From: Bryobacteraceae bacterium | GTDB taxonomy: Bacteria; Acidobacteriota; Terriglobia; Bryobacterales; Bryobacteraceae | DNA length: 40,000 nucleotides | Assembly (NCBI GenBank): GCA_036272835.1 | Contig: DATAXY010000025.1 | Location: forward strand, 334,155-374,154 | Reading direction: 5' to 3' | In this document: one piece after another, positions 11,500 through 40,000 of the stretch | Layout of the letters: each line of letters starts with the position of its first letter | How positions within the stretch are numbered: the stretch's first letter is position 1 | Notes under the pieces: generated by a model | The model's database searches: none | Told to the model about the DNA's origin: nothing | What the model saw: the letters and a program-made list of their open reading frames with translations, nothing else | Position numbers and translations under genes: made by a program

Positions 11500-11519
11500 G
11501 ATTGTAAACGTACACGATA

Positions 11520-13207: not shown

Positions 13208-13302
13208 ACTGAACGGACGCGCAGGCGCGAACGCGTGCGGATACTGGACCCAATATAACATTCGGGCGCATGTTAGGATGGCGGTTCGATCCTTCGCGTC
13301 CC

Positions 13303-14309: not shown

Positions 14310-14335
14310 GGGGAATCCGTTATCATAGCGGCTTC

Positions 14336-18559: not shown

Positions 18560-19186
18560 TTGGCTCAGCAGGTTTGCTCAGAGGATTTCGCCAAGATTGA
18601 TATGGAACAGGATACAAACGCGTCCGGTGTCGCGATGGAAGACACTAAACCAGTTAACGGGGCCAGTGAGCCCCAGTCAAAACCCGAGCGTTCTCCCGAA
18701 GCCGGTGAAGCGACGGAGACCGCCGGAACCCGCTCCCTAGCCGCTGAATTGGATCGGCTGGCTCGGGAGAAACGCGATCTGCAGGAATTGATGCAGCGAC
18801 GGCAGGCCGAGTTCGAGAATTACAAAAAGCGCGTGGAGCGAGAGCGCGGCGAGCTGTTTGAATTCGCGAGCATGGATACCGCCAAGGCGATGCTGCCTAT
18901 TTTGGACGATTTCGAACGCGCGTTGAAGGTTGAAAGCGCCGATAAAGAATATGCGCGCGGCATGGAACTGATTTATCAACGGCTGTACGAATCCCTTAAG
19001 AAGATCGGGCTGGAGCCGATCTCGACCGAGGGAATGTTATTTGACCCCCATCTGCACCATGCCGTGGACATGGTGGATTCGCCAGATTCGCCGGATCAGA
19101 CAATTCTCGAAGAATACCAGCGCGGCTATAACTTCAAAGGCCGCCTCTTGCGGCCAGCCATGGTGAAAGTGGCAGTTCGCCAGTAA
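18560..19186 (+). CDS. grpE: Nucleotide exchange factor GrpE
   Basis: 208-aa ORF (TTG at 18560; alternative ATG at 18602). GrpE motifs RRQAEFENYKKR, LPILDDFERA and the C-terminal GY.FKGRLLRPAMV. Confidence 0.9.
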   Translation: MAQQVCSEDFAKIDMEQDTNASGVAMEDTKPVNGASEPQSKPERSPEAGEATETAGTRSLAAELDRLAREKRDLQELMQRRQAEFENYKKRVERERGELFEFASMDTAKAMLPILDDFERALKVESADKEYARGMELIYQRLYESLKKIGLEPISTEGMLFDPHLHHAVDMVDSPDSPDQTILEEYQRGYNFKGRLLRPAMVKVAVRQ

Positions 19187-19211
19187 CTCTCCTGGGAATA
19201 TTTTAAAGACG

Positions 19212-20336
19212 ATGGGCGTCGCCAAACGAGATTACTACGAAATACTGAGCGTCGCGCGCGATTGCGACGACCAAACGCTGAAATCGGCCTATCGCAAGCT
19301 TGCGCTGCAACATCATCCCGACCGAAATCCGGGAAATGCCGAATCAGAGGAGCGGTTCAAGGAAGCGGCGGAAGCCTATGCGGTCTTGAGCGACCCGCAG
19401 AAGCGCGCGGCCTATGATCGGTATGGCCATCAGGGCGTGAACGGCGGAGCGGCGCCGAATTTCGACGAATCGCAGTTCGCCGACTTTGGGGATATCCTGG
19501 GCGATCTTTTCGGATTCGGCGATATATTTGGGCGCCGTGGCGGCGGCCGCTCGCAGCGTGCCCAACGCGGGGAAGACATTCGCTTCGACCTTGAGATTTC
19601 CTTTGAAGACGCAATGAAAGGCTTATCGGCAGACCTGCTCGTGCCCCGCCTGGAAGCGTGCACAAAATGCCGCGGAACCGGTGCCGAGCCGAACGGCGGC
19701 ATGGTGACCTGCTCGCTCTGCAATGGGCGTGGCGAAGTGCTCTATCAGCAGAGCTTCCTTAGCATTCGCAAGACCTGTCCCACGTGTGGTGGCCGCGGTC
19801 AAGTGATCCGCCAAGCCTGTTCCCAGTGTCGGGGCGAAGGATTCCACCGCACCGAGAAGAAGTTGAAAGTCAATATCCCAGCGGGCGTCGACACGGGCAC
19901 GCGCCTGCGCTTGAGCGGGGAAGGAAATCCGGCACCGCAGGGTGGACTGTCAGGCGATTTATACGTTGTTCTGAAAGTCACTGAACACCCAGTCTTCGAG
20001 CGCCGTGAAAACGATTTGCATTGCACTTTACCCGTCAATGTGGCGCAGGCCGCATTGGGCGCCGAAGTGACCATTGAAACCTTTGATGGCCCACAAGTAA
20101 TACGCATTCCGGAGGGCGCCCAGTCCGGAGCGCAATTCAAGCTTCGCTCCTTAGGTGTGCCGGAACTGAACTCGCGTGGGCGGGGTGACCTGTATGTGCA
20201 TTTGGATGTGCAGATCCCAAAGAAATTGACGCGCGAGCAGCGGCGGCATTTCGAAGAACTGCGCAATCTGCTGCCAACGGACAACACGCCGCAGGAAAAG
20301 AGCATGTTCGAAAAAGTCCGCGATTTCTTTGGATAG
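19212..20336 (+). CDS. dnaJ: Molecular chaperone DnaJ
   Basis: J domain (HHPDRNP), G/F-rich linker and four CxxCxGxG zinc-finger repeats. Confidence 0.95.
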   Translation: MGVAKRDYYEILSVARDCDDQTLKSAYRKLALQHHPDRNPGNAESEERFKEAAEAYAVLSDPQKRAAYDRYGHQGVNGGAAPNFDESQFADFGDILGDLFGFGDIFGRRGGGRSQRAQRGEDIRFDLEISFEDAMKGLSADLLVPRLEACTKCRGTGAEPNGGMVTCSLCNGRGEVLYQQSFLSIRKTCPTCGGRGQVIRQACSQCRGEGFHRTEKKLKVNIPAGVDTGTRLRLSGEGNPAPQGGLSGDLYVVLKVTEHPVFERRENDLHCTLPVNVAQAALGAEVTIETFDGPQVIRIPEGAQSGAQFKLRSLGVPELNSRGRGDLYVHLDVQIPKKLTREQRRHFEELRNLLPTDNTPQEKSMFEKVRDFFG

Positions 20337-20455: not shown

Positions 20456-21520
20456 GTGAAGGGCTTCAGAGGACTCTCTCGTAGGTCGACTGTTCTGACA
20501 CCAGAGAAAAAAGCAGCCGCTATCGCAGGATTACGTTATGCCATTCCTAAGGGCGCGGGCATTATCAGAAGGCGCGCCGGTCATGGCTTTGTCTACCTTT
20601 GGCAGGGCAAGATTCTTAAGAACGAGGTGATATTGAAGCGCATTCGCTCCTTGGTTATCCCGCCGGCATGGACTTCAGTGTGGATCAGCCCGGACGCGAA
20701 CGGCCATATACAGGCGGTCGGATATGACGCGCGCGGCCGGAAGCAGTATCGATACCACCCCGAATACCGGCATGTTCGCGACTTGGTGAAATTCGATCGT
20801 ATGCGAAGCTTTGGGAGGGCTCTGCCGCGCATTCGCCGTATCGTGGGCCGGGATCTGGTCCGTCCAGGACTGCCGAAACGCAAGGTGGTGGCCGCCATTG
20901 TGCGGTTGCTTGAGACCACCTACATTCGGGTCGGCAATGAAGAATATGTCAAGGAGAACGAATCGTTCGGACTGACAACCTTACGCAACCGCCACGTGGA
21001 GATTCTGGGCGAAGTGCTGCGCTTTCATTTTCGCGGGAAGAGTGGCCAGAGACACGAAATTGCGCTGGACGATGCACGACTCGCGCGGATCGTCAAAAAG
21101 TGTAAGTGCCTGCCGGGGAGTGCCGTATTTCAGTACCTGGATGAGGACGGGCGACCCGCGTCCGTAGACTCGGGCGATGTGAACGAGTATTTGAAAGAAA
21201 TCGCCCAGGGCGAGTTCACCGCCAAGGATTTCCGTACGTGGGGAGGAACCTGTTTGGCCCTCGAGTCTCTTGTCGAGAAAGGCCAAGAGGAGAGAGCCGC
21301 AAACATTAAGACGGCTCTGGTTGACGTTGTAAAGTCCGTGGCATCGAAACTTGGCAACAAACCAAACACCTGCCGCAAGTATTACATCCATCCCGACGTG
21401 CTGGAGAGTTTTGCTACTGGGCGATTGGCTCAAATGGCTGCCGGGTTGCGGAATGGCGAATCCTATCTCTACGAGAAGCTTCTGCTCTCATTGCTCAAAC
21501 CGCAGAAACTGGCGGCCTGA
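20456..21520 (+). CDS. DNA topoisomerase IB (poxvirus-like bacterial type)
   Basis: 354-aa ORF with IPPAWTSVWIS, GYDARGRKQYRYHP, FRGKSG and a C-terminal CRKYYIHP (catalytic Tyr context). Confidence 0.85.
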   Translation: MKGFRGLSRRSTVLTPEKKAAAIAGLRYAIPKGAGIIRRRAGHGFVYLWQGKILKNEVILKRIRSLVIPPAWTSVWISPDANGHIQAVGYDARGRKQYRYHPEYRHVRDLVKFDRMRSFGRALPRIRRIVGRDLVRPGLPKRKVVAAIVRLLETTYIRVGNEEYVKENESFGLTTLRNRHVEILGEVLRFHFRGKSGQRHEIALDDARLARIVKKCKCLPGSAVFQYLDEDGRPASVDSGDVNEYLKEIAQGEFTAKDFRTWGGTCLALESLVEKGQEERAANIKTALVDVVKSVASKLGNKPNTCRKYYIHPDVLESFATGRLAQMAAGLRNGESYLYEKLLLSLLKPQKLAA

Positions 21521-27764: not shown

Positions 27765-28076
27765 TCACCCATGTCCTCTCCCGCGCAAATTGCCGCCAAT
27801 CAGGCCAATGGGATAGGAGATAGAGAGCTGCAAAACTGCCCTCCCCCAGAGACCCTGTGCGACCGCTTCTTTAATTTTGCCCTCGGCCCCAATCGAAACC
27901 AAACACCCTGCCAATTCGGCCTTCAGAAGCAAAGATCGAGGTTCAGAGGCCTTGAAATCCGCTCTCAACAGAAGGTCGCGCGTTCGCCTTAAAGCTTGTG
28001 AGTATTCCCTAGCATCCAGCAGGGCGGTCACTTCATTTAGGAATTCTCGGTCCTCGGGGCTGATCGCTAACCTCAT
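27765..28076 (-). CDS. Hypothetical helical protein; the ORF reads outward through the left TIR into host DNA
   Basis: The 103-aa ORF begins inside the element (MRLAISPEDREFLNEVTALLDAREYSQALRR..., protein-like and TPR-like). Its last ~30 codons are encoded by the TIR, the TSD and host sequence. No recognised family. Confidence 0.3.
   Translation of the reverse strand: MRLAISPEDREFLNEVTALLDAREYSQALRRTRDLLLRADFKASEPRSLLLKAELAGCLVSIGAEGKIKEAVAQGLWGRAVLQLSISYPIGLIGGNLRGRGHG
27771..27809 (+). pseudogene. 5' fragment (13 codons, MSSPAQIAANQAN) of a host hypothetical gene interrupted by the casposon
   Basis: It joins in frame to 39617.. (AKLSTGPRTEEGRARSSHNAV...) once the element and one TSD copy are removed. 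The rest of track ORF 27771..27992 is read-through into the TIR. Confidence 0.8.
27796..27809. repeat. Target-site duplication, left copy (CCAATCAGGCCAAT; 15 bp if G27810 is included)
   Basis: Identical to 39603..39616. The following G is shared by the TSD and TIR interpretations. Confidence 0.85.
27810..27846. repeat. Left terminal inverted repeat
   Basis: GGGATAGGAGATAGAGAGCTGCAAAACTGCCCTCCCC, compared with the reverse complement of 39566..39602, GGGATAGGAGATAGAGAGCGGCAAAACTGCACCCCCC. The first 19 nt are identical and 34/37 positions match ungapped. Confidence 0.9.
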
Positions 28077-28362
28077 ATTGCTTCGGGTGGCACTAAAGCC
28101 CTTGAAGGTTCTTCTCGATGTTGACAGTTGTACAATTCGGAAAGAGAGTCAATGATCCTGATGGTTGGGACAACGACTCGCAGGTTCACATGCAGTGCAG
28201 GCCTTAGAGTTGGTTGTCGTCGTAAATGTCAAACGCTCCTGCCCCTACGTGTTGATCACGAGTTTCCCGAACAATAAGAAAGTTATCGAGTCCTGGATAA
28301 GGTAGAGATGTTCGTTCGCCTTCGCGATACTCCACTCTCTTCGTTTCGCAGGTAAATGCGTC

Positions 28363-29205
28363 TCAGCGTTCAACCAACAAAACCCCTTCCTTCATCCTAA
28401 AGGATGGATCGATGTTTTCCCTAACGAGATCGCACACGTAATTTGCGGCTCTTGTCATCTCAAGCACGAGGTCGTGAATCAAAGCTACATGGTATTCAAA
28501 TTCCAAGAGAAGCCCGGTATAGACATCATGTTCGTATGGCCGTCCCTTATAGAATGAAGCCGTTATCAGATATTCGTTAGGCCTATCCGCATCGTGCTCA
28601 GAATGCCTTGCGAACACCAGTAGAAGATCATTCACGACGAATCGGAATGACTCAAGGCTGTGACGTATCCGTTCATATCGAGTTGGCCAAACTCTCGATA
28701 ATAGCCAGACGCAGAGGCCTCGAAGGCTTTCTAAAAACTCAATGGCGACGATGGGTGTTGGAGCTAGTAAATATGAGGTATAGCCTAACCAATTATCTAA
28801 TCCGGCTCTCTTAGCCCAATCGTCAATGTATGCCGCCCACCTCTCATCGTCGGTCTGCTTCTTACTATCCCAATTGAGTGAGCTGCGAACCCACCCTTCG
28901 TGACTGCACTTAATTTCCTTCAGCTTTTGAACAGTAAAATAATTCTCCTGATCATCGACCTGCTTATGATGGATATTGCACAGCAAAATCAAATTTTCGT
29001 ACTTATTTCTCTGATCGAGGGGAAGGTCAGAATCGCCACGTGGTCCGTCGAGTTGCTCCGCTACGACGTGGGCCGCTTCTCCGACCAATGATGGATCGTC
29101 AGTCTCTGAGGGATCGATTACGAGGTCACGGCGGCACTCAGCTAGCGAGCAACGAGACGCTGCTCGCCCCCAGAGCATACGATTTGTCCTTACGCTGATT
29201 GACAC
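28363..29205 (-). CDS. HNH endonuclease domain protein with an uncharacterised C-terminal domain
   Basis: 280-aa ORF (GTG at 29205; alternative ATG at 29178). HNH core: C..AEC....GEAAHVVA....GPRGD....NKYENLILLCNIHHKQVD. Confidence 0.75.
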   Translation of the reverse strand: MSISVRTNRMLWGRAASRCSLAECRRDLVIDPSETDDPSLVGEAAHVVAEQLDGPRGDSDLPLDQRNKYENLILLCNIHHKQVDDQENYFTVQKLKEIKCSHEGWVRSSLNWDSKKQTDDERWAAYIDDWAKRAGLDNWLGYTSYLLAPTPIVAIEFLESLRGLCVWLLSRVWPTRYERIRHSLESFRFVVNDLLLVFARHSEHDADRPNEYLITASFYKGRPYEHDVYTGLLLEFEYHVALIHDLVLEMTRAANYVCDLVRENIDPSFRMKEGVLLVER

Positions 29206-29272
29206 TGAGTTTCACCACGCAGGTTTCGAGCGTTCAGCCTCCAACAGCGTCGGATGAGTGCTCGCCATTGAT

Positions 29273-30430
29273 CTAAGTTTCTCGCTTTGCCACGTCCGGT
29301 ACACTGTGGGCAGCATCACTACTCGACTGCTCGCAATTCCACAATTCAACTGAATCTGTATAGTAATATTCGACGTTAATTGCGTTCCCGGAATTCCATT
29401 GCCGAACCGCAGAAATTATTTTTGTGTTTGCTTCGCTACCAGGATCACCGTGTAATCCAACAAACACGCATCGGAATGAGGGCGCGAACATTCGTTTCAT
29501 AACGTGAGCATCTGAAGGCCCAAGGCTGTGACCAAACGTAAAAAGGATACTCCCGCTGCGGGAGAAGGTTGTGAGGCAGTACCTCAAGTACGGATGCCGG
29601 GTAATCTGCTGCATCTTTTCAGCGCTTGTTCCCTCGCAAACAAATAGGGGAGCTCGGCCCTCTCTGATGTTCATCTTGATTTGATCTACAAGTTTGCCAC
29701 CATCAGAGGTGATTTTCGTCAGTATTCCGTTTGACTCGAACAGGTGAAGCCCGCCGTGCAAGAAGTGCACATTCTGTTGGTATTGGCGGGTCTCCCGAAA
29801 AGTGTCCCTCCACTCAAGTCTTCCCTCTAAAAACTCTGACCTTCTGAAGCCGTCGCTCCATCCCTCCCAGCCAGCCGTAGCGAGAGTCCAATATAGAAGC
29901 AGATCGTAGTTCAAGGTGAAAACGTGGCCAAAGTTCTTCAGAAAGGAAAGCGTCGACGCGTAAGCATCATCGGGTATAACGAACACGTGATCGGGATGCC
30001 GTTGGGCAACAGCCCTAACCAGCGCATCTTTTATGAAATCACTATCTACTCGAAACTTCTCGCCGATCTGCAACCCGTGCTCGGCGTGACATGTCGCGAG
30101 CTTGCTTGCGATATCCAGATAGCGGATGACCTCTTCGAAATCTTTGGTACCGAGAATCTCAAACGCTTTTTGGGCTGTTGGAGCTAAGCTGAAATCGGTA
30201 TCGGTGAACAAGGCATTGTAGCTGAAAATGCTCTTATCCCAAGCGATACTGAATCCATTGCCGAGAAGAAGAACACATCTCTCAGGGGGTCCATACTCTT
30301 TGGCCTTCTGAAGAGCCCGGTCAAACGAAACGACCTCAATCACAATAAGACATAATACAGTACGCTTGTTGTTGGGCAAGCCCAAAGCTTCAAAACGCTC
30401 GCCTAATACTTGCCTCCTCAATTCCTCCAA
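29273..30430 (-). CDS. DUF4917-like protein (SIR2-like / DHS-like NAD-binding superfamily candidate)
   Basis: 385-aa ORF with LLLGNGFSIA, FTLNYDLLLYW, VHFLHGGLHLF and FGHSLGPSDAHV, which I recall as the DUF4917/SIR2_2-type motif series. It overlaps the polB stop by 13 bp; the start may be internal. Confidence 0.55.
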   Translation of the reverse strand: MEELRRQVLGERFEALGLPNNKRTVLCLIVIEVVSFDRALQKAKEYGPPERCVLLLGNGFSIAWDKSIFSYNALFTDTDFSLAPTAQKAFEILGTKDFEEVIRYLDIASKLATCHAEHGLQIGEKFRVDSDFIKDALVRAVAQRHPDHVFVIPDDAYASTLSFLKNFGHVFTLNYDLLLYWTLATAGWEGWSDGFRRSEFLEGRLEWRDTFRETRQYQQNVHFLHGGLHLFESNGILTKITSDGGKLVDQIKMNIREGRAPLFVCEGTSAEKMQQITRHPYLRYCLTTFSRSGSILFTFGHSLGPSDAHVMKRMFAPSFRCVFVGLHGDPGSEANTKIISAVRQWNSGNAINVEYYYTDSVELWNCEQSSSDAAHSVPDVAKRET

Positions 30431-33400
30431 GTGTTCGACTCTTCCCCGGTAAACCCATCCGAACTGCTTTGCGGCAGCAGTAACCGCTTAAGCAAATTCT
30501 CATTCGTCGCATGCGGTCTGCTCCTTCCAGCCCTCAGATCGATCAGCGCACGACGAGAAAGCCCGCTCACTCTCACTAGTTCCGAGAGCGCGATCTTCTT
30601 CAGTGCGGGCAAGATCTGCATGGTCCACTCGTCTCGACGTTGATCAACATATTCCGTGTACACATCTCCCTCGTCCCGGACCATGCCAGATTCAACATCT
30701 TCGAGACGATTCGATTCTTTGCCGATGTAGATGATCCTGTCGATTTGGATGTGTCTGCGCTGAAGTAGACCGACCGTCTGTTTGTCGCAGACAATGCCCT
30801 GGGTATCGGCACACTTCGATTCAGGGTGGTACTCGTATTCGGTCAGAATATCGTTGTACGTTTTGACGCGTGCCATTGTGCGTGTTCCGTGCTGGCCTTC
30901 GGTGATGATGCGATACGTGTTGCCGCTGTACTGGTCGATCCATTTTGCCTTGTGCCATTTATTCGGGTCGGTTTCGTAGGGCGCAATCAGATGGAAGTGA
31001 TTTGGATCGGCTTCGGTTGGATGTCCGAAACTATCAACTTGGGCTGTCAGCAAGAAATTGAAGGGCTTGATCTGCGCTCCGTATTGCTTACCGGCGTTGA
31101 AGGTTGAGAATGGCTTCATGACCGCAGGACTGCTGACGGTAACTCGCCCGACTGCTGGCATATGCCCAAAGCTGAGAGCCAATGTTGGCAACCCGAAATG
31201 CTCTCGAATAATGTTGAGCCACACTTGCCCAATCCAGTCGCGGTCTTCATCACCGAGATTCATCGGATTAAGCAGATGTCCAAGGCCGTGCTCTTTCCAT
31301 CCATTGTCTTTGCTGTTGGCGTTCCGGCGCAACAAAACCGGGTCTCCGGTTTCATCCTTTAGAAATAGGGCGTATCGCTTTGCTGAGATCCCAAAACAAT
31401 AGATTTGTCTCTGCTTCTTCGATACCGGATCGAAGTTCACATCCTCGATTTTGAGCACGGAACCGGATACAAGCGTTGCGTCGTATGTGTTCGGTGCTCT
31501 GAACGTTTCGGCGATCTGCCAGACCTGCTCCCATGAGAGAGCCTGAATTGCCGGTTTGCCGTCCTCAGTTGCCAGCGATCCGCCGGGACACGGCACAATC
31601 CCACCGTGTTCAGTGGCGACGATCGCCATCGAGTCCGTGTCTTCCATGGCATACGTTCCGCTAAGGCTCGTGACACTGTGCTCAAGCAGGGCAAGCATGA
31701 GACGCGCGGCCCCCGTGATCAGTGACGCCATCGGCGAAAAGAAGTATTCTCCGGGCTTTTCGACGCGTGCATTTTGGCTTGAGAATGGCTCAGGGTCGAT
31801 TCCGTGGCAGATTGTGGATTTCTCCTTTTCCTGCTCATCGCGATTCATTTCAGCGTAGATCCCGTAACTGGTCGCGTTCGCTAGTACTTTGAGAAATTTG
31901 TTCAGCGGGTTCTCGGACGGTATCTGCTTCCGCTGTTCAATTGCAACCTTGAAGAAATCCTGTTTCGCCGGGTTGATCTCCAATTCTCCGCGCAGCCGAA
32001 TTGGTATCAGCCCAGGCAAAGTACCTTTGGGAACAATACGAAACGCATCCAAAATCGTAGGTATGCGTCCAGTCAGAATTACCGATGCAACGACATCAGG
32101 TAATGATAACCAAATCGCGTGCCGGTCCGGATTTTCTTTGTCTCCGTAAAGATAATTCGATCCGACCTGCCAATCCTTGCTGACATCCGAATATTTCGCT
32201 CTCGTTGGGACAATATCGCCATCCGGGACAATCTTCACGAACGCTGTGAGGAACTTCCAGATTTCCGGCTGAAACAATTTCTCTGGCGTGATCGCTGAGA
32301 GCCAATCGCTGATTTCGGCTGCGCAATTCTCGACAACTTCGATTTTCTTAGCAATGACGAACCGCCACAATCCCATGAGACTGTTAACCGTTGGATACAT
32401 CGACAGAAAATCCACGTACACAACGGGCACAGAAACTTTCCGAATATGAACGCTGGTGCGGCCCCCGAAGAATGCAGATTGCGCATATCCAATAAACTGT
32501 TTCGGAAACTCCGGCTGACGCTTCAGTATCGGTGGAATATTCATCGCCTTGAGATGTGCCTTACCGATCGACGCTGGCGAATATGCCTTGGTCTCCTGAA
32601 GATCGATCGAATGCCAGTCGTATTCTTCGAGAAGCTTGAAAAGCAGCCCCGCAGTTGCGCGAACGTCCTGCCGGTTGTATTCGATGTATTCGTCAGAAAC
32701 AACTCCGTGACCAAGAGCCTTTGATTTTCCTGCCTTAACTCCAAAATCTTTGCAAGCTCGCTCCAAACTGTAGTTCTTGTCGGTGAGTGCAAAAGCGAGT
32801 GTTTTCAAATCCAGGAAATGCCCCCGGAAGATATATCCTTTCTCGGGTTTGCCCGTTGTTGAGCCTTCTGGAATGAGATCCACAAAGTCAGGATTCTTTC
32901 GCGCGGTGAATCCCTTCAATGCGCTCTTGCTGTTGATGTGCTTGATTCCGAGCCTGGGTAGAAACGGATTCCGTTTGTTGGCGTTGGTTTTGTCTTGATA
33001 CGTATCGAGACCCAACGAGAAGCCACCCTCGAACGCACCTCGGGCTGTTGTGGCGTCAGACGCGATCCGGGAGAGGTCAAAGGGCAAATTGAAGCCGACA
33101 ATCAGGCCCCTGGTTTTGTATCCGACTTGATAAAGCTTGCGAATGAATTGGCTACGGGTGAGGAGCAGCAGCTTTCGTGATTGTCTTGCGCCTGTGTCTT
33201 GCGTGTTCTTTGCCACGTATTCTTTGAGAGTCGAAAGTTCGATTCCGGTTATGTCATCACCAAAGAACAGACCTTCTTCGACGCAATACTTGCCGTCGAA
33301 ATATCGATAGCTGCCAAAGATTAGGCTTTGTATCTGGTCAGTTCTGGTTTCCGTATCGAATACAAGAAAGCCGGTTGGACGTTTCCTGGACGCTGGTTTC

Positions 33401-33486
33401 TTCGGCTTCTGCTTATCGTGCTTTTTCGCGTCAGGGTAGACTCGGACCGCGATGTTCAGGGGTGTTGGGTCGGACTGTTTAATCAA
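30418..33486 (-). CDS. polB: Family-B DNA polymerase with 3'-5' exonuclease domain
   Basis: 1022-aa ORF with a TTG start. Exonuclease motifs: ExoI FDTET (D44, E46), ExoII NLPFD (N133-D137), ExoIII YNRQD (Y270-D274). Polymerase motifs: A YVDFLSMYPT (D359), B KVLANATSYG (K533), C YAMEDTDS (D616, D618). Confidence 0.92.
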   Translation of the reverse strand: MIKQSDPTPLNIAVRVYPDAKKHDKQKPKKPASRKRPTGFLVFDTETRTDQIQSLIFGSYRYFDGKYCVEEGLFFGDDITGIELSTLKEYVAKNTQDTGARQSRKLLLLTRSQFIRKLYQVGYKTRGLIVGFNLPFDLSRIASDATTARGAFEGGFSLGLDTYQDKTNANKRNPFLPRLGIKHINSKSALKGFTARKNPDFVDLIPEGSTTGKPEKGYIFRGHFLDLKTLAFALTDKNYSLERACKDFGVKAGKSKALGHGVVSDEYIEYNRQDVRATAGLLFKLLEEYDWHSIDLQETKAYSPASIGKAHLKAMNIPPILKRQPEFPKQFIGYAQSAFFGGRTSVHIRKVSVPVVYVDFLSMYPTVNSLMGLWRFVIAKKIEVVENCAAEISDWLSAITPEKLFQPEIWKFLTAFVKIVPDGDIVPTRAKYSDVSKDWQVGSNYLYGDKENPDRHAIWLSLPDVVASVILTGRIPTILDAFRIVPKGTLPGLIPIRLRGELEINPAKQDFFKVAIEQRKQIPSENPLNKFLKVLANATSYGIYAEMNRDEQEKEKSTICHGIDPEPFSSQNARVEKPGEYFFSPMASLITGAARLMLALLEHSVTSLSGTYAMEDTDSMAIVATEHGGIVPCPGGSLATEDGKPAIQALSWEQVWQIAETFRAPNTYDATLVSGSVLKIEDVNFDPVSKKQRQIYCFGISAKRYALFLKDETGDPVLLRRNANSKDNGWKEHGLGHLLNPMNLGDEDRDWIGQVWLNIIREHFGLPTLALSFGHMPAVGRVTVSSPAVMKPFSTFNAGKQYGAQIKPFNFLLTAQVDSFGHPTEADPNHFHLIAPYETDPNKWHKAKWIDQYSGNTYRIITEGQHGTRTMARVKTYNDILTEYEYHPESKCADTQGIVCDKQTVGLLQRRHIQIDRIIYIGKESNRLEDVESGMVRDEGDVYTEYVDQRRDEWTMQILPALKKIALSELVRVSGLSRRALIDLRAGRSRPHATNENLLKRLLLPQSSSDGFTGEESNTWRN

Positions 33487-34015
33487 CTGAGTCGCCCCCC
33501 TTGCGAAGTTTCTGCCACCATTTCGCCCCCAACATTTCAGTCATCTCCGCATCGAGCTTTTCAAGATTTTCCGGCTGTATCGAGAGAAATCGCTCGATCA
33601 AGTAAGACTGCATGTCAACGAATCCTCGAATACTTGCAGCTGCCCGGCGAAGTGGACTTTGATCGGGATTTTCCAGGGTTCGTGTTGGCCAGTCTTTCTG
33701 TGCTCGTGTCAATTCCGCCCGATGATCGTTGACGGGTATTTCGACTGTTGCCGGATGGTTGTTCTTGCCAGCAACATGATGTTTGTCCATTGTTGTTCGT
33801 CCTTTCTTTTTACGAAGACAAGCTGCGCACATGACCGAGTGTTTTCTCCGTGTCAATGCTTCAGGTCTCCTCTCGCCGCAATGACATGCAGCATTCTCAC
33901 CAACTCTTCTTTGCGCAATTGCTGTTCGCTGCGCTGCTTTGATGGGATCTCGTCCTTGTCGGTTTGAATTCACTTCAGACGCTCCTCGCATACACAGATT
34001 CGAAAGAAAGCACAC
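33479..34015 (-). CDS. Zinc-ribbon / HNH-like small protein, translationally coupled to polB
   Basis: 178-aa ORF (GTG at 34015; the ATG at 33991 is more plausible). Contains CHCGE...CAAC cysteines and DKHHVAGKNNHPATVEIPVNDHRAEL (H-N-H-like spacing). Its stop overlaps the polB TTG start by 8 nt (GTTGATTAA). Confidence 0.4.
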   Translation of the reverse strand: MCFLSNLCMRGASEVNSNRQGRDPIKAAQRTAIAQRRVGENAACHCGERRPEALTRRKHSVMCAACLRKKKGRTTMDKHHVAGKNNHPATVEIPVNDHRAELTRAQKDWPTRTLENPDQSPLRRAAASIRGFVDMQSYLIERFLSIQPENLEKLDAEMTEMLGAKWWQKLRKGGDSVD

Positions 34016-34613
34016 CGGCAGAACCGAGGCGATTCAGTTCCTTTAAGTCGGTAACGAGTCGAATCTCGTTTCCATTGGCGTCCTTCACTTTTTTGCCTCT
34101 AAATTTCTTCAGAGCGGAACTGTCGCCAGTTCTGAGGTACTTCTGAACGGCGTCCATGTATCGGCCTACCGTGCTGCCGTATTTGGAATTGCGAAGTGAA
34201 ACTTCCTGCTGGCCTTCATTTGATGGAATTCGCATCACTCGAAGAAGGCTGTCTGTTTTGGATACCGAATACCGTCCATTCGGCTGCTTCTTGATGGCGC
34301 GGCCAGCCCAACGAACAACGGTTTGAGACTTAACCCCCGCTTCTTTAGCAGCCTTGCTGAGAGACAACCGATCAGTTCGCATCTTGGCGATTGTCCGAAG
34401 GACCTTACTCCAGGTCTCTTGGTCCGCTTCAGGTTTTGCGAAGAAATCGTCCCGAGTTCGGGGCACGGAAGGGGCGGGACGCCGTCCACGGCTTATTTTT
34501 CTCTTGCGCCTCACGACATGAGCATGCAGGTTTGTTTTGGCAACAACAACAAAAAGTTTGTGTGTCGAAATTGCCAGGAACAGGTCGGCAGCAGTGATTG
34601 GCATCGTTGCCAA
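33975..34613 (-). CDS. Hypothetical DNA-binding protein (HTH: LSLSKAAKEAGVKSQTVVRW)
   Basis: 212-aa ORF. The N-terminal ~40 codons look non-coding and contain a palindrome, so the true start is probably further in (a GTG near 34530). The basic RRKRKISRGRR stretch precedes an HTH-like segment. Confidence 0.4.
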   Translation of the reverse strand: MATMPITAADLFLAISTHKLFVVVAKTNLHAHVVRRKRKISRGRRPAPSVPRTRDDFFAKPEADQETWSKVLRTIAKMRTDRLSLSKAAKEAGVKSQTVVRWAGRAIKKQPNGRYSVSKTDSLLRVMRIPSNEGQQEVSLRNSKYGSTVGRYMDAVQKYLRTGDSSALKKFRGKKVKDANGNEIRLVTDLKELNRLGSAGVLSFESVYARSV

Positions 34614-34619
34614 TCACTG
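34592..34619. promoter_or_regulatory. Perfect 12-4-12 palindrome (candidate operator) in the divergent control region of the element
   Basis: CAGTGATTGGCA-TCGT-TGCCAATCACTG. It lies 21 nt upstream of the ATG of ORF 34640 and over the annotated 5' end of ORF 33975..34613. Confidence 0.5.
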
Positions 34620-34639
34620 TTGGACAATAGTTTCTGGCA

Positions 34640-35242
34640 ATGGTTGAAGATGGAATGACAGACGAGACCCTACGAAAGCTAAAGGAGCAATTCCAGGAGC
34701 TAAAGCATACATTCACGAGTCTCAGCGGTTCGTCGGATTACTCCGTAGCCATCCAAGAGCTTCAGGCACTCACAAAGGATATGCCGTTGCTGGCACCGTT
34801 CCTGCGGGACGCAGCAGAACGGATGATGCCTGAAGCGACCCGAGGCAATACCGTACGCCCCGAAATGTTCACTCGTTATTTAGCGGCGATTGACACAGAG
34901 GAAAAGTTTGATCTAGTCCTTGCAAGTATGACGGAATCTGATGGTCAGCAGCTAAGCAGGCACTTAACACAGATGCTAAAGAGCGTTCTTCCCAACATTA
35001 GGGAGGACGGATTAGAAACTTTAAAGAAATTACCCCATCGGCGCGGTGGTGGAAGAAAGAAGGAAGTCGATGATGAACGAGCAGAACGGATTTGCAAAAA
35101 AATCGCAAAGCATATTGAGTCTGGCGTAAGTATTGGCGACGCGCAACGACGGGTTAGCAAGGACGAACGTCTAAGCGAAAGAACCGTTAGAGAAGTCTGG
35201 CAAAACCGAAAGAAAAGACACTTGGTGACTGAGAACAGCTAA
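34640..35242 (+). CDS. Hypothetical protein with C-terminal HTH-like segment
   Basis: 200-aa ORF upstream of cas1 on the same strand. The C-terminus GVSIGDAQRRVSKDERLSERTVREVW resembles a resolvase/Sigma70_r4-type HTH. No family recognised. Confidence 0.45.
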   Translation: MVEDGMTDETLRKLKEQFQELKHTFTSLSGSSDYSVAIQELQALTKDMPLLAPFLRDAAERMMPEATRGNTVRPEMFTRYLAAIDTEEKFDLVLASMTESDGQQLSRHLTQMLKSVLPNIREDGLETLKKLPHRRGGGRKKEVDDERAERICKKIAKHIESGVSIGDAQRRVSKDERLSERTVREVWQNRKKRHLVTENS

Positions 35243-35344
35243 CCAGCGATGACCTGGAAACGTCAACTATTTGAAGGAATATCGGGCCTGCAGCTTGTTC
35301 CACCAAGCGGCAAGCCCTAACCAGCACAGGAGGGTTAAGCTCCC

Positions 35345-36934
35345 ATGAAGGCTACAAAAACCGTAGCGCAGTCGTCGCGCGTCCGCAAGTTAACGCCGCG
35401 ACCGCCAGCAAACATCCACTTCCGACGCTTGTTCGCACCCAGCCATGGTGTCGTGGTTCTTGTCGGATTCGGGATCAAGGTTCGAATCGATCGAGGCCAT
35501 CTAATGCTAGAGGAGGGCATCGGCGACGATCGCCGTGTAGGTCGATTCCCGCGTGTCCATCATGGCCTCAGCCGCGTAGTGGCGATCGGTAACGATGGCG
35601 TAGTCTCGTTGGCAGCGTTGCAGTGGCTTGCCGATCAGAAGATAGCCCTTTCGATGTTGGAACGGGACGGAGTTGTTCTCTGCTCGATAGGTCCCATTGC
35701 GGCCTCAGACACGAGGTTGCGCCGTGCGCAAGCGTGTCTGTCTCATTCACCCTCAGCCGTTTTGATTGTTCGGGAATTGATCCGCCAGAAAATCGCCGGT
35801 CAGGAGAGCGTTGTCCGAAACAAGCTCAACAAAACGAGCGCGGCTCACGTGATCGCCAGATTTCGGAATCAACTCATGACCGCAGACAGCATCGATACCA
35901 TCCGGATGATCGAGGGACATGCAGCGGGTGTTTACTGGACAGCCTGGCAGGATGTCGCGATTCGATTTCCGAAGAGCGATCTTCCGAAAATCCCGGAACA
36001 CTGGACCCAATTTAGTACCCGTCGTTCTCCCATCTCTGGCACGTCGCGGCGATCGCCGAACCCGGTAAACGCTATTCTGAATTACCTCTACACGCTCCTG
36101 GAATCGGAAACACGGCTGGCCATCACAGCGCTCGGACTGGACCCCGGCTTCGGGCTGCTTCACGTCGATCAATCGACCCGTGACAGTCTCGTCTATGACT
36201 TGATGGAACCGATTCGACCCAAGATCGACGCCTACGTTCTCGATTGGATACTACGGACACCCCTCAAGCGCTCATGGTTTTTCGAAGAACGTGATGGTTG
36301 TTGCCGTCTCATGTCCGACATGACCGCTTCTCTAGCAGACACTACGAGAACCTGGGCTGAAGAAGTAGCGCCGATCGTCGAATGGTTTGCGCAGTCGCTT
36401 GCGTCCTCAGCCCAGGAGAGCACTCGGGTTCGGACACCGGCAACACGCCTCACTCAGCGCAGTAGATGCGAAGGACAGGGCGTTAGCGCCCCCGCCGCGA
36501 AAGAACCAAAAACTCAGCCGAACGTTTGCACCATATGCGGAACCGCTGTCTCACCGAACAATCGCTACTGCCATGAGTGCGGCCAGCAGGAATCGGGTAA
36601 GCGGCTTGCCGCAGCCCAAGCCATGAGTCTGGATGCCGCAAGGACACCAGAAGCGCTGGAGAAGAAATCAGCGGCAATGAAGGACCATCGGAACGCTCTC
36701 AGGAATTGGCAACCGTCGGATCTGCCGGAATGGTTAACCGATGAGGTTTACATCGCCAAAATTCAACTCGCCCTTGAGCGTTTTTCTAAAGCGGAAATTG
36801 CCAGAGCCCTCGGAATCTCCAAAGATTACGTCTACGAAATCGTGCGTGGCGATAAGGTGCCACATAAACGGCATTGGGTGAAGTTGGCGGAATTGGTGGG
36901 GATGAGCTCAGAAGAGGGGTCGAAGAGACGGTAA
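35345..36934 (+). CDS. cas1: Cas1 homologue (casposase-type integrase) with C-terminal zinc ribbon and HTH
   Basis: 529-aa ORF with AGGAGG ~10 nt upstream of the ATG. Cas1 motifs: IEGHAAGVYW (E190), NPVNAILNYLYTLLESE, GLDPGFGLLH (H273), YDLMEPIRP (D286/E288). C-terminal CTICG-x10-CHECG and FSKAEIARALGISKDYVYEIVRG. Confidence 0.9.
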   Translation: MKATKTVAQSSRVRKLTPRPPANIHFRRLFAPSHGVVVLVGFGIKVRIDRGHLMLEEGIGDDRRVGRFPRVHHGLSRVVAIGNDGVVSLAALQWLADQKIALSMLERDGVVLCSIGPIAASDTRLRRAQACLSHSPSAVLIVRELIRQKIAGQESVVRNKLNKTSAAHVIARFRNQLMTADSIDTIRMIEGHAAGVYWTAWQDVAIRFPKSDLPKIPEHWTQFSTRRSPISGTSRRSPNPVNAILNYLYTLLESETRLAITALGLDPGFGLLHVDQSTRDSLVYDLMEPIRPKIDAYVLDWILRTPLKRSWFFEERDGCCRLMSDMTASLADTTRTWAEEVAPIVEWFAQSLASSAQESTRVRTPATRLTQRSRCEGQGVSAPAAKEPKTQPNVCTICGTAVSPNNRYCHECGQQESGKRLAAAQAMSLDAARTPEALEKKSAAMKDHRNALRNWQPSDLPEWLTDEVYIAKIQLALERFSKAEIARALGISKDYVYEIVRGDKVPHKRHWVKLAELVGMSSEEGSKRR

Positions 36935-37126
36935 AGCCCGGTAAAGGGGAAACCGGCGATATATAATTCTCGGAATGACTCGGCTCAAGTGGGACAAATC
37001 ACAGCGTCTTGGCTAAATGATTGCGAGAATGATTAGAGGGCCAGTTGACGTTGCGAACCACGGAATTGCGGTGTTCAGCCGGGCGTGTCAGATGTTGGCC
37101 ATCATAGTTGAGCCTGTTTACTTGAA

Positions 37127-37876
37127 GTGGCGAAAGGAGGTCGCAACAATTTGATTGCGGGCGAGAACGATGTGCGTTCGAGGCCGGTTTACTCGATACC
37201 CGAGGCAGCCGGATACCTAGGCATACCCATCAACACCCTGGTTGCTTGGACCGTGGGGCGACGAAAGGCGAATAGTCCCAACTTTTATGTGCCGATACTA
37301 AGCTTCGTAAATCCGGATCTCAGGAAGTTGTCCTTTTATGATCTTGTAGAAGCGCAGATTCTTCGTGTCGCAGTCGAGCGTAAGGTACCCCTGAGGCAAT
37401 TGAAGCGAGGATTGGCATATCTCAGAAGTAAGCATCCGCTTAACCCTAGACCACTGCTCACTTATGATTTTCTAACTGAGGGCAAGTATTTGTTGGTCGG
37501 TGGGATGCTTGGGTCTAAAGAAAAGGACCAGGATGCCCTCGTAAACGCCTCGGTGCACGGGCAACTCGAAATGGCCAGCGTAATTGGAGAACATGTCAGC
37601 CTTCTGCTTAGCGGCATCGATGAATCTCTCAAATTCGTCGCGCGCGACCACGGCTCTAAGTTGCCTCATACGTTGTTTCCGAAAGGCGGACACCACTTGG
37701 TTTCGATCACGCCAGGAGTGGTTTCCGGTCGCCCAGCTATCGAAGGTACACGCATACCAACTAGGATCATTGCTCAGCGATTTCGTGCTGGTGAAGACGC
37801 CAAGACATTAGCGAAGGACTATCGTCTTTCAAAGGAGAAGATTGAGGCGGCGATCCAATACGAAGCAGCCGCATGA
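37127..37876 (+). CDS. VapB45-like antitoxin candidate: N-terminal MerR-like HTH plus C-terminal DUF433 domain
   Basis: 249-aa ORF (GTG at 37127; the TTG at 37151 is better placed, 10 nt after AAGGAGG). YSIPEAAGYLGIPINTLVAW is an HTH. The C-terminal ITPGVVSGRPAIEGTRIPTRIIAQRFRAGEDAKTLAKDY matches the DUF433 pattern. Confidence 0.7.
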   Translation: MAKGGRNNLIAGENDVRSRPVYSIPEAAGYLGIPINTLVAWTVGRRKANSPNFYVPILSFVNPDLRKLSFYDLVEAQILRVAVERKVPLRQLKRGLAYLRSKHPLNPRPLLTYDFLTEGKYLLVGGMLGSKEKDQDALVNASVHGQLEMASVIGEHVSLLLSGIDESLKFVARDHGSKLPHTLFPKGGHHLVSITPGVVSGRPAIEGTRIPTRIIAQRFRAGEDAKTLAKDYRLSKEKIEAAIQYEAAA

Positions 37877-38369
37877 TCCTCACGTTCTTTATCTGGACGA
37901 GGACATAAGCGGTAATAAGTTGGCATCCCTGCTACTGCAAGCACGAATAGCGGTGAAGAACTATGAATCACTGCTTAGGAAAAATAAGAAGGTTCCGGAT
38001 GGTCGTGTGATTCTCACTAGCGCCAAGGCTAACTTTGTACTCGTAACGACAGACAAGAGGATGGAGGCCGAATGGGTCGAGGACATCATCATGAACAGGG
38101 CAAAGGTGCTCCTTTTAACTGATGAGTGCGGTGGCCCGATACATTGGGCGTCAGCACTAATTTGCGGACAGTCAGCCTGGACAAGAGTTCTTCTTGATCA
38201 TCATGGCGAGCCTCTGACCATGAGGGTTAATAGAAACGGCTCCGTTACAAAAGTGACGGGAGAAAAAGAACTCAGGGAGCGTAGCGATGCTCTGTTTCAG
38301 TCAAACGTTGTTCGTGCCAAGCGGAGCGGGGAGACGTTGCCTCGCCGCGTAATGAAAAAACACGCGTGA
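37842..38369 (+). CDS. DUF5615 / PIN-like (VapC45-like) toxin candidate
   Basis: 175-aa ORF overlapping the upstream gene by 35 bp. LYLDEDISGNKLASLL...DGRVILTSAKANFVLVTTDKRM fits the D-E..D..T.D acidic pattern of DUF5615. Confidence 0.55.
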   Translation: MRRRSNTKQPHDPHVLYLDEDISGNKLASLLLQARIAVKNYESLLRKNKKVPDGRVILTSAKANFVLVTTDKRMEAEWVEDIIMNRAKVLLLTDECGGPIHWASALICGQSAWTRVLLDHHGEPLTMRVNRNGSVTKVTGEKELRERSDALFQSNVVRAKRSGETLPRRVMKKHA

Positions 38370-38561
38370 AAGTGTGCACTAGATGAGGTCAACCCCTAAG
38401 CCCATGCGGATTACACCTGAGTTAACTTCACTCTGTAAAAGGCAACCACCAGCCCGAACTGATGAACGCAGCATTCCGTGCTGTACTGAAACTTCCGCAC
38501 GCAGCAGTATGAAGGACGCAGCAAGGCGGGAGCGAGCAAGCGCGAAGAAGAAGTCCGCCTA

Positions 38562-39401
38562 ATGCGAACTATCAGCGAAGTTATCAGTGAAATCCGCTTT
38601 TCGCTTTCTCGTGCCCTCAGCTTGGTTCATAAGAATGAGACGCTTCTAACGTCACAGCTGGAAGAACATGAAGACCAAATAGCCAAGCGAGAAGTTGAGG
38701 CTGAAATCGAATTTTTTGTTAACCAAGCATTTAGGCGCGCTGTTGTAATGGCAGAGGTTAGAGGATTAAAGAGCACCCGTAGCTCCATTGAACGACTTTA
38801 TAAAGAAGCGCAAGGTCAGCTTTCAAGTTTCGAAGACGTTCATGGGGAGATCTATCTTAAGTGGCAGCCACGGCTAGAGGAGTTCTTAGACGCATTACAG
38901 ATTGCGCTAGGCGAGCCGAGTTCGGCACTAATAACGAGAGAGATTATCAGCATACTAAAAGAGACTCAATATAGCATCACGAGACCAATATATTTCGGCA
39001 GAGTTCCCGAGAAGGAAAAAGACGTGCATGATCGGATCGAAGCGATTTTGCGATGTATATTTCCTGACATGAAGCATAAGCCTCACGTTGGCACGTTCTT
39101 GAAAAACTTCGAGCCGGACACTGGCCTTCCTTCGATTAAGACACTCCTGGAATATAAGTTTGTCAAGAGCGACAACGAGGCCCGGACTGTCTTAGATCAG
39201 CTGTTTTCGGATGTCGTTGGTTATTCATCCCCTGAGTGGAAAACACTCATCTGCGTTATCTATGAAACGAAGCGTGTCTTTTCGGAGAAGCAGTGGAACA
39301 CCGAGGTGAAGTCGAGACCGGCTTTTCAGGATTCGGGAGTTGCCGAGAACGTCCAGGTAGTTGTAATCTCTGGAGATTCCCCCCGGGGTTCGAAGGCGTA
39401 A
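38562..39401 (+). CDS. Hypothetical protein with C-terminal PD-(D/E)xK-like nuclease motif
   Basis: 279-aa ORF. The N-terminal half looks like a coiled coil. The C-terminal FEPDTGLPSIKTLLEYKFVK fits D-x(n)-E-x-K of the restriction-endonuclease-like fold. No family recognised. Confidence 0.4.
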   Translation: MRTISEVISEIRFSLSRALSLVHKNETLLTSQLEEHEDQIAKREVEAEIEFFVNQAFRRAVVMAEVRGLKSTRSSIERLYKEAQGQLSSFEDVHGEIYLKWQPRLEEFLDALQIALGEPSSALITREIISILKETQYSITRPIYFGRVPEKEKDVHDRIEAILRCIFPDMKHKPHVGTFLKNFEPDTGLPSIKTLLEYKFVKSDNEARTVLDQLFSDVVGYSSPEWKTLICVIYETKRVFSEKQWNTEVKSRPAFQDSGVAENVQVVVISGDSPRGSKA

Positions 39402-39565
39402 CCCAAACGATCTCTTGTGCATCGAGTAGCGGCATCGAAACACCGCAAGACGTTTGCCTGGCGCGTTTTTACGATCACCGCAAATCTGATTCGCCAATTC
39501 TCGGATTAACAATTTTGAGCACCTGGCGTTCTAGGTCTTTTTAACTAGCCCACTCGATTCGGATT

Positions 39566-39602
39566 GGGGGGTGCAGTTTTGCCGCTCTCTATCTCCTATC
39601 CC
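39566..39602. repeat. Right terminal inverted repeat
   Basis: Its reverse complement matches 27810..27846 at 34/37 positions, with the first 19 nt identical. Confidence 0.9.
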
Positions 39603-39616
39603 CCAATCAGGCCAAT
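39603..39616. repeat. Target-site duplication, right copy (CCAATCAGGCCAAT)
   Basis: Identical to 27796..27809. Confidence 0.85.
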
Positions 39617-40000
39617 GCCAAACTATCTACGGGTCCTCGGACCGAAGAGGGCCGAGCCAGATCCTCTCACAACGCCGTCCGCACGGCGCTGACCGGCCGC
39701 ACCGTTCTGCTGCCCACCGATGATGTCGAGGAATACAAGAAGCACGTCGCCCGCTTCGAAGCCGAGTTCAAACCCGTCACCGAGCGCGAAAAAGAACTCA
39801 CCCAGAACATCGCCGAGACCCAGTGGCGCATCGATCGGATTTTCTCCCTCGAACAAGGCATCTACGCCGTCGGCCGCGTCGAATTCGCCGATCTCTTCCA
39901 AAACCAGGATGAGGCCGTCCGCGCCGCCATGATCGACGTGAAAACTCTGACCACCTATCAGCGCCAGCTCAACAATCTCTCGCTTCAAGAGGAACGTCTT
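39603..40000 (+). pseudogene. 3' portion of the interrupted host hypothetical gene (continues beyond the window)
   Basis: The frame from 39605 reads NQAN AKLSTGPRTEEGRARSSHNAVRTALTGRTVLLPTDDVEEYKKHVARFEAEF... and is open to the window end. It has no start codon of its own. Track ORF 39623..39988 (-) is its antisense shadow. Confidence 0.8.

Follow-up and report, generated by a model that had tools for sequence, protein, structure and literature searches.

Which enzyme inserted the 11,793-bp segment at positions 27810-39602 of a Bryobacteraceae contig, and what did that enzyme recognise in its target? A single stretch of 40,000 nt of this contig (DATAXY010000025.1 of GenBank assembly GCA_036272835.1, positions 334,155 to 374,154), called the window here, was analysed. 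The segment has a GC content of about 0.50, compared with 0.57 in its flanks, and it carries a Cas1 gene and a family-B DNA polymerase (PolB) gene between inverted ends. Casposons, the transposons that use Cas1 as their integrase, are thought to be ancestral to the CRISPR spacer-integration machinery. We are highly confident that the segment is a complete casposon of the family 3 type, a self-synthesising transposon that is predicted to be probably still functional and that homes to a specific site.

The boundaries of the element are defined by four features.

27796..27809, no strand: left copy of the target-site duplication (TSD), CCAATCAGGCCAAT, with its length fixed by related elements.
27810..27846, plus strand: left terminal inverted repeat (TIR), GGGATAGGAGATAGAGAGCTGCAAAACTGCCCTCCCC, from repeat search and alignment.
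39566..39602, minus strand: right TIR, reverse complement GGGATAGGAGATAGAGAGCGGCAAAACTGCACCCCCC, from repeat search and alignment.
39603..39616, no strand: right copy of the TSD, from repeat search and alignment.

A first-pass annotation had proposed these ends, and all of its coordinates and end sequences are reproduced here. A repeat search of the window returns the annotated arms of 37 nt each, which match at 34/37 positions (92% complementary) and differ at TIR positions 20, 31 and 33. This pair is the top inverted repeat of the 40-kb window, with a score of 28 compared with 14-24 in 30 dinucleotide-preserving shuffles. The sequence CCAATCAGGCCAAT forms an exact 14-bp direct repeat that is flush with both arms. 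Short repeats are common in a window of this size (78 inverted pairs were found), and one could therefore suppose that the repeats are chance matches around a Cas1/PolB cluster within a non-mobile genomic island. This supposition is practically untenable: the arms outscore 30/30 shuffles, an exact 14-nt match at a fixed location has a chance probability of 3.7e-9, and the same termini recur in other genomes, as described below. A Smith-Waterman alignment of the outermost 200 nt at the two ends, as the annotation had called for, lengthens the repeat merely to 39/38 nt with one 1-nt gap and detects no subterminal similarity beyond that point, which disposes of an earlier suggestion that an indel might conceal a longer inverted repeat.

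Related elements were gathered with a scan of one genome per species, which returned 19 related Cas1 loci, all in metagenome-assembled genomes (MAGs) of Acidobacteriota, and with look-ups of the closest Cas1 homologs, which added nine further loci. At E<=1e-30, there are more than 1,200 Cas1 homologs. Neither the window's Cas1 nor P0001 had an exact match on record. A version of the Cas1 with a shorter N-terminus (P0121) led to a 10,266-nt Logan contig (L147, SRR11836411), which is 100% identical to window positions 29349-39614, has the same right junction and comes from an independent sequencing run. The junction pattern had 0 matches in viral contigs.

Within the window's Cas1 subclade, the alignment of 13 ends from 8 elements is free of gaps. 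Positions 1-13 of the TIR (GGGATAGGAGATA) are invariant among these ends, as are positions 24-25, 27-30 and 32 (within AAAACTGCCC), and positions 15-23 vary. The terminal 14 nt consist of two tandem heptads, GGGATAG GAGATAG, and all related TIRs start with GGG(A/G)TAG at both ends. The TIR strand that runs to the 3'-OH end of the element reads ...CTCTATCTCCTATCCC. Related elements terminate at identical bases and no copy terminates elsewhere, so the ends withstand the refuting test set in the annotation. They are precise.

The copies also settle the length of the duplication, which had been annotated as 14 or 15 bp, with G 27810 assignable to either the TIR or the TSD. The ambiguity arises from G 39617 after the right repeat, which equals the first TIR base. 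Direct repeats in L149, L005, L006 and L013 are exactly 14 bp long and are followed by a base other than G. The duplication is therefore 14 bp with G 27810 in the TIR, and the 15-bp alternative is discarded. In the target gene described below, codon 14 is an invariant Ala codon that begins with G 39617, so the same G is expected in every insertion into that gene family. Exact 14-bp TSDs flank the window's element, L142, L148, L149, L150, L005, L006 and L013, and five complete elements with such a TSD, including the window's own, belong to the window's subclade.

A third part of the annotation concerned the hexamer CCAATC of the target, which was said to recur near both ends and perhaps to reflect end/target mimicry. 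The subterminal copies do exist (at 27889, and as GATTGG at 39562). Their presence is attributable to chance: the window contains 28 copies of the hexamer (0.7 per kb), and L001 and L002 have none near their ends, in the subterminal regions.

The core genes of the element, and a palindrome between two of them, are the following.

30418..33486, minus strand: PolB, 1022 aa; weak Pfam DNA_pol_B_2 match, PHROG DNA polymerase match and polymerase motifs, 57-62% identical in six relatives.
33479..34015, minus strand: p178; 45-58% identical and syntenic in L001, L142, L144, L148, L149 and L150.
33975..34613, minus strand: p212, with a weak helix-turn-helix (HTH)-like N-terminal region; 62-67% identical and syntenic in six relatives.
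34592..34619, no strand: perfect palindrome CAGTGATTGGCA-tcgt-TGCCAATCACTG with 12-nt arms, at the divergent starts of the p212 and HTH genes.
34640..35242, plus strand: HTH protein, 200 aa, upstream of Cas1; Pfam HTH_32, E=1.1e-4.
35345..36934, plus strand: the casposase, with Cas1 at residues 41-325, a zinc ribbon at 391-413 and a C-terminal HTH at 473-523 (Pfam).

The 529-aa Cas1 matches Pfam Cas_Cas1 (E=3.5e-45) and TIGR00287 (E=1.9e-34), and its best match in the PDB is the Methanosarcina mazei casposase 6OPM. PolB contains the motifs ExoI (FDTET), A (DFLSMYP), B (KVLANATSYG) and C (MEDTDS), and it has no match among PDB sequences. All of the defining parts of a casposon are thus present: TIRs, a TSD of about 14-15 bp, a Cas1-family integrase and a family-B polymerase. 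The block of PolB(-), p178(-), p212(-) and Cas1(+) keeps its synteny in six related elements, at 45-73% identity. No family in Pfam, NCBIfam, PADLOC or PHROGs matches p178. The 200-aa HTH protein is 30% identical to a protein in the equivalent position of L142.

Could a different recombinase have moved this segment? Cut-and-paste transposons in general have TIRs flanked by a duplication, p212 weakly matches the N-terminus of the IS481 transposase model (E=7.6e-4), and the 200-aa protein contains an HTH_32 domain. These features would also fit an ordinary DDE-transposase transposon or a composite insertion sequence (IS) that merely resembles a casposon. We regard such an origin as very unlikely. 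Domain library searches detected no DDE catalytic domain, integrase, Cas2 or other cas gene among the element's 10 open reading frames (ORFs). The 14-bp duplication, the Cas1 and PolB core in six relatives and the family 3 architecture of TIR and TSD also speak against it. The view that these are the ends of a Cas1-mobilised element is upheld by the pairing of Cas1 with PolB in the absence of another recombinase, by a Cas1 of family 3 and by the terminal bases that the relatives share. Neither a CRISPR array nor tandem repeats were found in the window.

Family placement relied on the reference Cas1 sequences in the published alignment of Krupovic et al. 2014 (PMC4046053), which were scored by blastp. 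The window's Cas1 reaches 140-212 bits against family 3 (best with AceAut-C1, at 42% identity and 212 bits), 107-109 bits against family 2, 65 bits against family 1 and at most 57 bits against CRISPR Cas1. A neighbour-joining tree, which is rough in that it has few references and carries no support values, places it inside family 3 next to AceAut-C1. Bacterial hosts typify family 3, and all 19 of the related genome loci agree with this pattern. The flanks of the element in the window hold bacterial housekeeping genes, and the host is an acidobacterium, probably of the Bryobacteraceae.

Two described members of family 3 are particularly close in organisation. AceAut-C1, from a fosmid of Ca. Acetothermum autotrophicum, has a Cas1 with a C-terminal zinc-binding domain and HTH, as does the window's element. 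Cas1 is also fused to a zinc-binding domain and an HTH in NitAL212-C1 (Nitrosomonas sp. AL212), a 14.4-kb element whose 35-36-nt TIR starting with GGGGTAT and 14-bp TSD replicate the end architecture found here (PMC4046053). This agreement bears out the annotated proposal that the duplication has a length of the casposon type. Published casposon TIRs range from 25 to 602 nt (PMC4046053). PolB with variable cargo is likewise common to family 3 casposons and the window's element. The polymerases of families 2 and 3 were called 'RNA-primed' in the usage of 2014-2016 and were assigned to a divergent PolB_CDTDS group in 2020.

The element departs from described family 3 casposons in three respects. 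Their hosts are Proteobacteria, Actinobacteria and Acetothermia, whereas the host here belongs to the Acidobacteriota. All described members are intergenic, whereas this element lies within a coding sequence and truncates the gene. No recurrent, sequence-defined target had been reported for the family, and this element has one. In addition, the HNH gene of the window's element appears to lie outside the conserved core.

The disrupted gene is divided into two parts in the window.

27771..27809, plus strand: 5' piece of the interrupted gene, ATG plus 13 codons (MSSPAQIAANQAN), from empty-site reconstruction and paralog alignment.
39617..40000, plus strand: remainder of the target gene from codon 14, running off the end of the window, from empty-site reconstruction.

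Removal of the element and one TSD copy restores a single ORF that starts at 27771 (MSSPAQIAANQANAKLSTGPRTEEGRARSSHNA...) and continues beyond the window, with at least 141 aa encoded. This ORF aligns without gaps across the junction with the uninterrupted paralogs in L020 and L021, and about 125 bp of upstream DNA is common to the reconstruction and those paralogs. The insertion cuts the promoter and codons 1-13 off from the remainder of the gene. Rescue by the right end of the element was considered and is ruled out, as neither ATG nor GTG nor TTG occurs in frame from the stop codon ending at 39544 to the TSD. This copy of the gene is therefore truncated.

More than 1,000 proteins from Bryobacteraceae and Acidobacteriaceae, each about 225 aa long and annotated as hypothetical, make up the family of the target. 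The best matches of the target are in Bryobacteraceae MAGs (94% identity). Genomes hold several paralogs each, and one MAG has at least four that are 78-94% identical to the query. The paralogs aligned with the reconstruction lie at L020:6001-6678 and L021:6001-6678; in L020, a second 225-aa gene, a candidate member of the family, lies tail to tail with the first at 6690-7367. The residues that bracket the insertion site, N10 and N13, are invariant in 33 aligned members. The N-terminus is nearly invariant as NxxNAxLSTGP..G....S.NA, and most members end in AA. No match for the target protein was found in Pfam (above threshold), NCBIfam, PADLOC or PHROGs. Its AlphaFold model is all-helical (pLDDT 79), and a Foldseek search of this model against the PDB gave nothing below E=0.5. 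At the DNA level, the target site of the window can be written as GCCGCCAATCAGGCCAATGCC and GCAAATTGCCGCCAATCAGGCCAATGCCAAACTATC, with CCAAT...CCAAT borders. A tRNA gene as target was also considered and rejected: none occurs in the 19 related genome loci, and the sole tRNA gene of the window (Ala, 13132-13207) is 14.6 kb away.

Insertion at this codon is not peculiar to the window. The first-pass annotation remarked neither on the position of the site within a protein-coding gene nor on its repeated use. The relatives L001, L002, L142/L143, L144, L148 and L150 have Cas1 proteins that are 61-73% identical to the window's, and 7/8 independent elements of the subclade are inserted after codon 13 of homologous genes.

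Window: TSD CCAATCAGGCCAAT, both ends, orientation A.
L148: TSD CCAATCAAGCCAAC, both ends, orientation A; 13,198 bp, with TIRs identical over at least 50 nt.
L142 (the same as L143): TSD CCAACCTGGCGAAC, both ends, orientation B; 13,547 bp.
L150: TSD CTAATCAAACCAAC, both ends, orientation B.
L144: TSD CGAATCAGGCCAAT, right end only, orientation A.
L001: TSD CCAATCAGGCCAAC, left end only, orientation A.
L002: TSD CGAATCAGCAGAAC, one end, orientation B.
L149: TSD CTAACCGGACCGTC, both ends, no orientation assigned; outside the target gene family.

The insertion context in the seven genes is MS[ST]xAQ[IL]AAN[QL]xN|, with the vertical bar marking the insertion point. The target proteins themselves have diverged and are only 34-63% identical to the window's. 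The TSD consensus, C-N-A-A-Y-C-A-G-G-C-C-A-A-Y, corresponds to codons 9-13 (A-N-Q-A-N) of the target family, and TSD positions 1, 3, 4 and 6 are invariant in 8/8 elements.

A shared site could also be the legacy of one ancient insertion that was inherited vertically as the gene family duplicated. The targets are paralogs and orthologs that could have carried an element along, and decayed copies exist (L001, L002 and L144). Even so, we consider this history very improbable. The seven gene insertions are divided between four in orientation A and three in orientation B. The TSD of every complete element is perfect and agrees with that element's own diverged target, the TIRs of L148 are still identical over at least 50 nt, cargo is wholly different between copies, and more than 1,000 family members are uninterrupted. 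Because both orientations occur, perfect TSDs match the local targets and the cargo is unrelated, the integration is repeated and sequence-specific, not one inherited event.

A single conserved site with a flanking direct repeat is also typical of islands driven by a tyrosine or serine recombinase, in which case the 14-bp repeat would be an att core and not a TSD, and L149 does carry a serine recombinase. No integrase gene is present in the window's element, L142, L148 or L150, however, and att recombination would not permit both insertion orientations. The repeat also abuts TIRs that are conserved to the terminal base, and its sequence varies by copy with the local target, unlike an attP carried by the element. 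An island of this kind is accordingly a very poor candidate, and we return to a casposon that homes to its target.

What such a casposon reads could be either the gene family or its DNA. Of the subclade members found, L149 alone lies outside the target gene family, and its TSD equals that of L150 at 10/14 positions. This match outside the gene family suggests that DNA, and not the gene, is recognised.

Several observations weigh against a complete, functional and site-specific casposon. Conservation of the target DNA is not fully separable from protein-level constraint on the N-terminal motif, and L149 is the only element that argues for recognition at the DNA level. The right TIR of the window has a substitution at position 31, which is otherwise nearly invariant. 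A search allowing up to 3 mismatches detected no second TIR in L001, L002 or L144, so many copies are decayed. The Pfam match of PolB to DNA_pol_B_2 is weak, and its motif C is EDTDS, not CDTDS. Lastly, we infer the integration chemistry of this enzyme from archaeal casposases of families 1 and 2.

Two of the decayed copies have an additional peculiarity. In both L001 and L002, a single canonical junction is present and a second TIR is missing, but the loci contain direct repeats of 224-266 bp (1-257 and 19575-19840 in L001; 9563-9786 and 14832-15055 in L002). These repeats consist of the region upstream of the target and its first 13 codons, and the second copy runs into an intact gene. They could result from an off-register second strand transfer, or from insertion into tandem paralogs followed by deletion. 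In L001, part of a Cas1 gene also lies inverted at 18704-19385, and a decayed TIR is accompanied by an inverted piece of the target at 517-583. ISs (IS3-type rve, ISAZ013, Transposase_mut and IS1595) occur in or beside several related loci (L146:15776-16971, L144:2777-3619, L142:14388-15707 and L145:13139-13792), and the one in L146 directly abuts a casposon terminus.

Integration may proceed as it does for archaeal casposases. The Cas1-family integrase would bind both TIR ends, and the TIR 3'-OH groups would attack the two target strands 14 bp apart, by analogy with the casposases of A. boonei, N. koreensis and M. mazei. Gap repair would then yield the 14-bp TSD, and the element's own PolB would copy the element. 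Entry in either orientation splits the target gene after codon 13 and would inactivate that copy. The C-terminal zinc ribbon and HTH of the casposase, or the accessory HTH proteins, might read the target, and we speculate that multi-copy targets keep the cost of insertion low. Since the host has several paralogs, each genome would probably offer several low-cost landing sites.

Experiments on casposases have documented 14-15-bp TSDs and sequence-specific targets (PMC6614799, PMC9939771). For AciBoo-C1 of Aciduliprofundum boonei, a family 2 casposon, Cas1-mediated integration with a 14-15-bp TSD and a strong target-site preference has been demonstrated (Beguin et al. 2016, 2019, PMC6614799), whereas the same chemistry is predicted by analogy for the window's element. 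An HTH likewise lies at the C-terminus of the AciBoo-C1 casposase. In both cases, conserved target nucleotides are found at the leader-proximal edge of the TSD, as CC at +1/+2 for AciBoo-C1 and as C-N-A-A at +1 to +4 in the window's subclade. AciBoo-C1 differs in being archaeal, in having a family 2 Cas1 (at most 109 bits to the window's) and in targeting the 3' end of a tRNA-Pro gene, which is kept intact.

The targets known for other casposons are the 3' ends of tRNA genes for family 2, the 3'-distal part of the aEF-2 gene for family 1 and intergenic sites for families 3 and 4. Thaumarchaeal family 1 casposons resemble the window's element in their site-specific integration into a protein-coding gene (aEF-2). 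Their insertion is 3'-distal and preserves the gene, whereas the window's element truncates its target at codon 13, and they also have a protein-primed PolB and a Cas1 without an HTH. Casposons of families 2 and 4 in Methanosarcina mazei reuse the same site and form tandem arrays with one TSD between elements (PMC4779613), as does the sister clade described below. They are archaeal, target tRNA-Leu genes or intergenic sites and disrupt no protein-coding gene. Outside the casposons, Tn7 homes by means of TnsD and attTn7 to a conserved host-gene sequence and thus has a predictable site per genome, like the window's element. It is not of the same family: its enzymes (TnsABC+D) are unrelated, its TSD is 5 bp and it inserts harmlessly downstream of glmS. 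The comparison of Tn7 with casposons was drawn by Krupovic et al. (PMC4046053, PMC4779613).

A sister clade of Cas1 proteins has a different target. The two Cas1 subclades have their 13-nt termini and a 14-bp stagger in common, and sister-clade elements have two or three copies of GGGATAG at the head of the TIR. A scan of soil metagenomes with the terminal 16-mer gave at least 113 unique junctions (loci L022-L141, for example L022:4125, L051, L100, L120, L087, L127 and L128), and the counts that follow are among the matches listed. GTCAA is found exactly at -14 to -10 in 28/113 unique junctions (enrichment P=1e-58), and TTGAC is found at -5 to -1 in nine of the 113. These are two faces of one 14-bp TSD, N9+TTGAC. 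The genome loci of the sister Cas1 subclade obey this rule in 9/9 cases (L005-L010, L013, L014 and L016).

Reading outward, 20/28 GTCAA junctions continue as TTGACn, 17-18 nt and TAnnnT, compared with a TTGAC background of 6.8% (P=8e-18). Because the junctions read in this way, the sister clade is read as inserting at the -35 boxes of sigma-70-type promoters. The TSD itself carries TTGAC, and a promoter firing away from the element would therefore be rebuilt. The remaining eight GTCAA junctions mostly read TTGAC|GGG..., in which the bases after the bar belong to the TIR of a neighbouring, more divergent element. Eight junctions have the form TIR-14 nt-TIR (L023, L025, L031, L049, L056, L058, L109 and L115) and represent tandem arrays of different casposon-like elements with a single 14-bp unit between them.

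Two side observations concern these junctions. One promoter, TTGACCCTTCTTTTCTTGCGCCTGTAAGATCAA, is hit repeatedly by the sister clade. GTCAA junctions also outnumber TTGAC junctions (28 versus 9), although one of each is expected per insertion; the excess may be due to an orientation bias, or to a 16-mer that is better conserved at one end than at the other.

The window's subclade does not obey the TTGAC rule, so target class tracks Cas1 subclade. We lean towards the view that target choice is encoded by the element and evolvable. One subclade would use the TTGAC -35 box and leave the promoter intact, and the other would have been retargeted to a coding motif, with destruction of the copy that it enters.

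Bacterial casposons have so far been described in a handful of genomes, where all are intergenic, and experiments on target recognition have dealt only with archaeal enzymes from two families. Our literature search found nothing on acidobacterial casposons or on a target gene truncated by a casposon, although a 2017 review (PMC5665730) might mention acidobacterial casposons. In full-text searches, casposon and Acidobacteria terms co-occur only in unrelated contexts. The novel features are a recurrent in-gene target that insertion truncates, unlike any described casposon target, and a sister clade that occupies promoters. If the reading given here is correct, the window contains the first gene-disrupting, family-homing casposon, and the two subclades supply, as a natural pair, Cas1 integrases whose DNA specificities differ and can be defined. 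Family 3 casposons are abundant in soil Acidobacteriota, as their terminal 16-mer is in soil metagenomes. Closely related casposases with two different, sequence-defined targets constitute a tractable comparative system for target reading by Cas1, which bears on the origin of CRISPR leader-repeat recognition and on the design of sequence-specific DNA-insertion tools.

Cargo genes lie at both ends of the element and are different in each of the six relatives.

28363..29205, minus strand: HNH-nuclease protein, 280 aa; Pfam HNH_2 (E=3.9e-4), PADLOC PDC-M68A and SAVED-HNH effector models (E=5e-32).
29273..30430, minus strand: DUF4917 protein, 385 aa; Pfam DUF4917 (E=3.6e-52), PADLOC PDC-S21, a candidate defence gene (320 bits).
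37127..37876, plus strand: DUF433 / HTH_66 protein, 249 aa (Pfam).
37842..38369, plus strand: 175-aa protein; weak restriction-enzyme-family match only (E=8.9e-4).
38562..39401, plus strand: protein with a DpnII/MboI-type restriction-endonuclease fold, 279 aa; Pfam DpnII-MboI (E=2.2e-12), PADLOC Aga_Helical-REase (E=4e-12).

As judged from such matches, the predicted cargo of the window's element and its relatives is mostly defence-like. The HNH protein, which is similar to defence effectors, has no tblastn homolog in L001, L142, L144, L148, L149 or L150 and on these grounds looks more like cargo than like part of the core. Among the relatives, L142 carries a reverse transcriptase and a PolA-like gene (765-4071), L144 a TIR-domain protein (11813-14079), L148 GmrSD (11855-13189), L150 NACHT and KAP NTPases (1410-5468 and 11597-13942) and L149 a methyltransferase and a helicase (461-5102). 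L149 also has two ParB/RepB genes and a serine recombinase within its casposon TIRs (11411-14744), and the same combination is known from the family 3 casposon HypCY54-C1 (Krupovic et al. 2016, PMC4779613).

The palindrome at 34592-34619 is probably an operator. It has GCCAATCA in common with the target site. A functional link through this shared sequence is not supported: chance alone should give about five 8-mer matches of this kind in 11.7 kb, and the relatives do not conserve the similarity. Palindromes at the equivalent place in L142 share CCGCCAA with that element's own target, and the other relatives have none. In the chromosomal flank, positions 20456-21520 hold a bacterial type IB topoisomerase gene (Topoisom_I and Top1B_N_bact) that is unrelated to the element.

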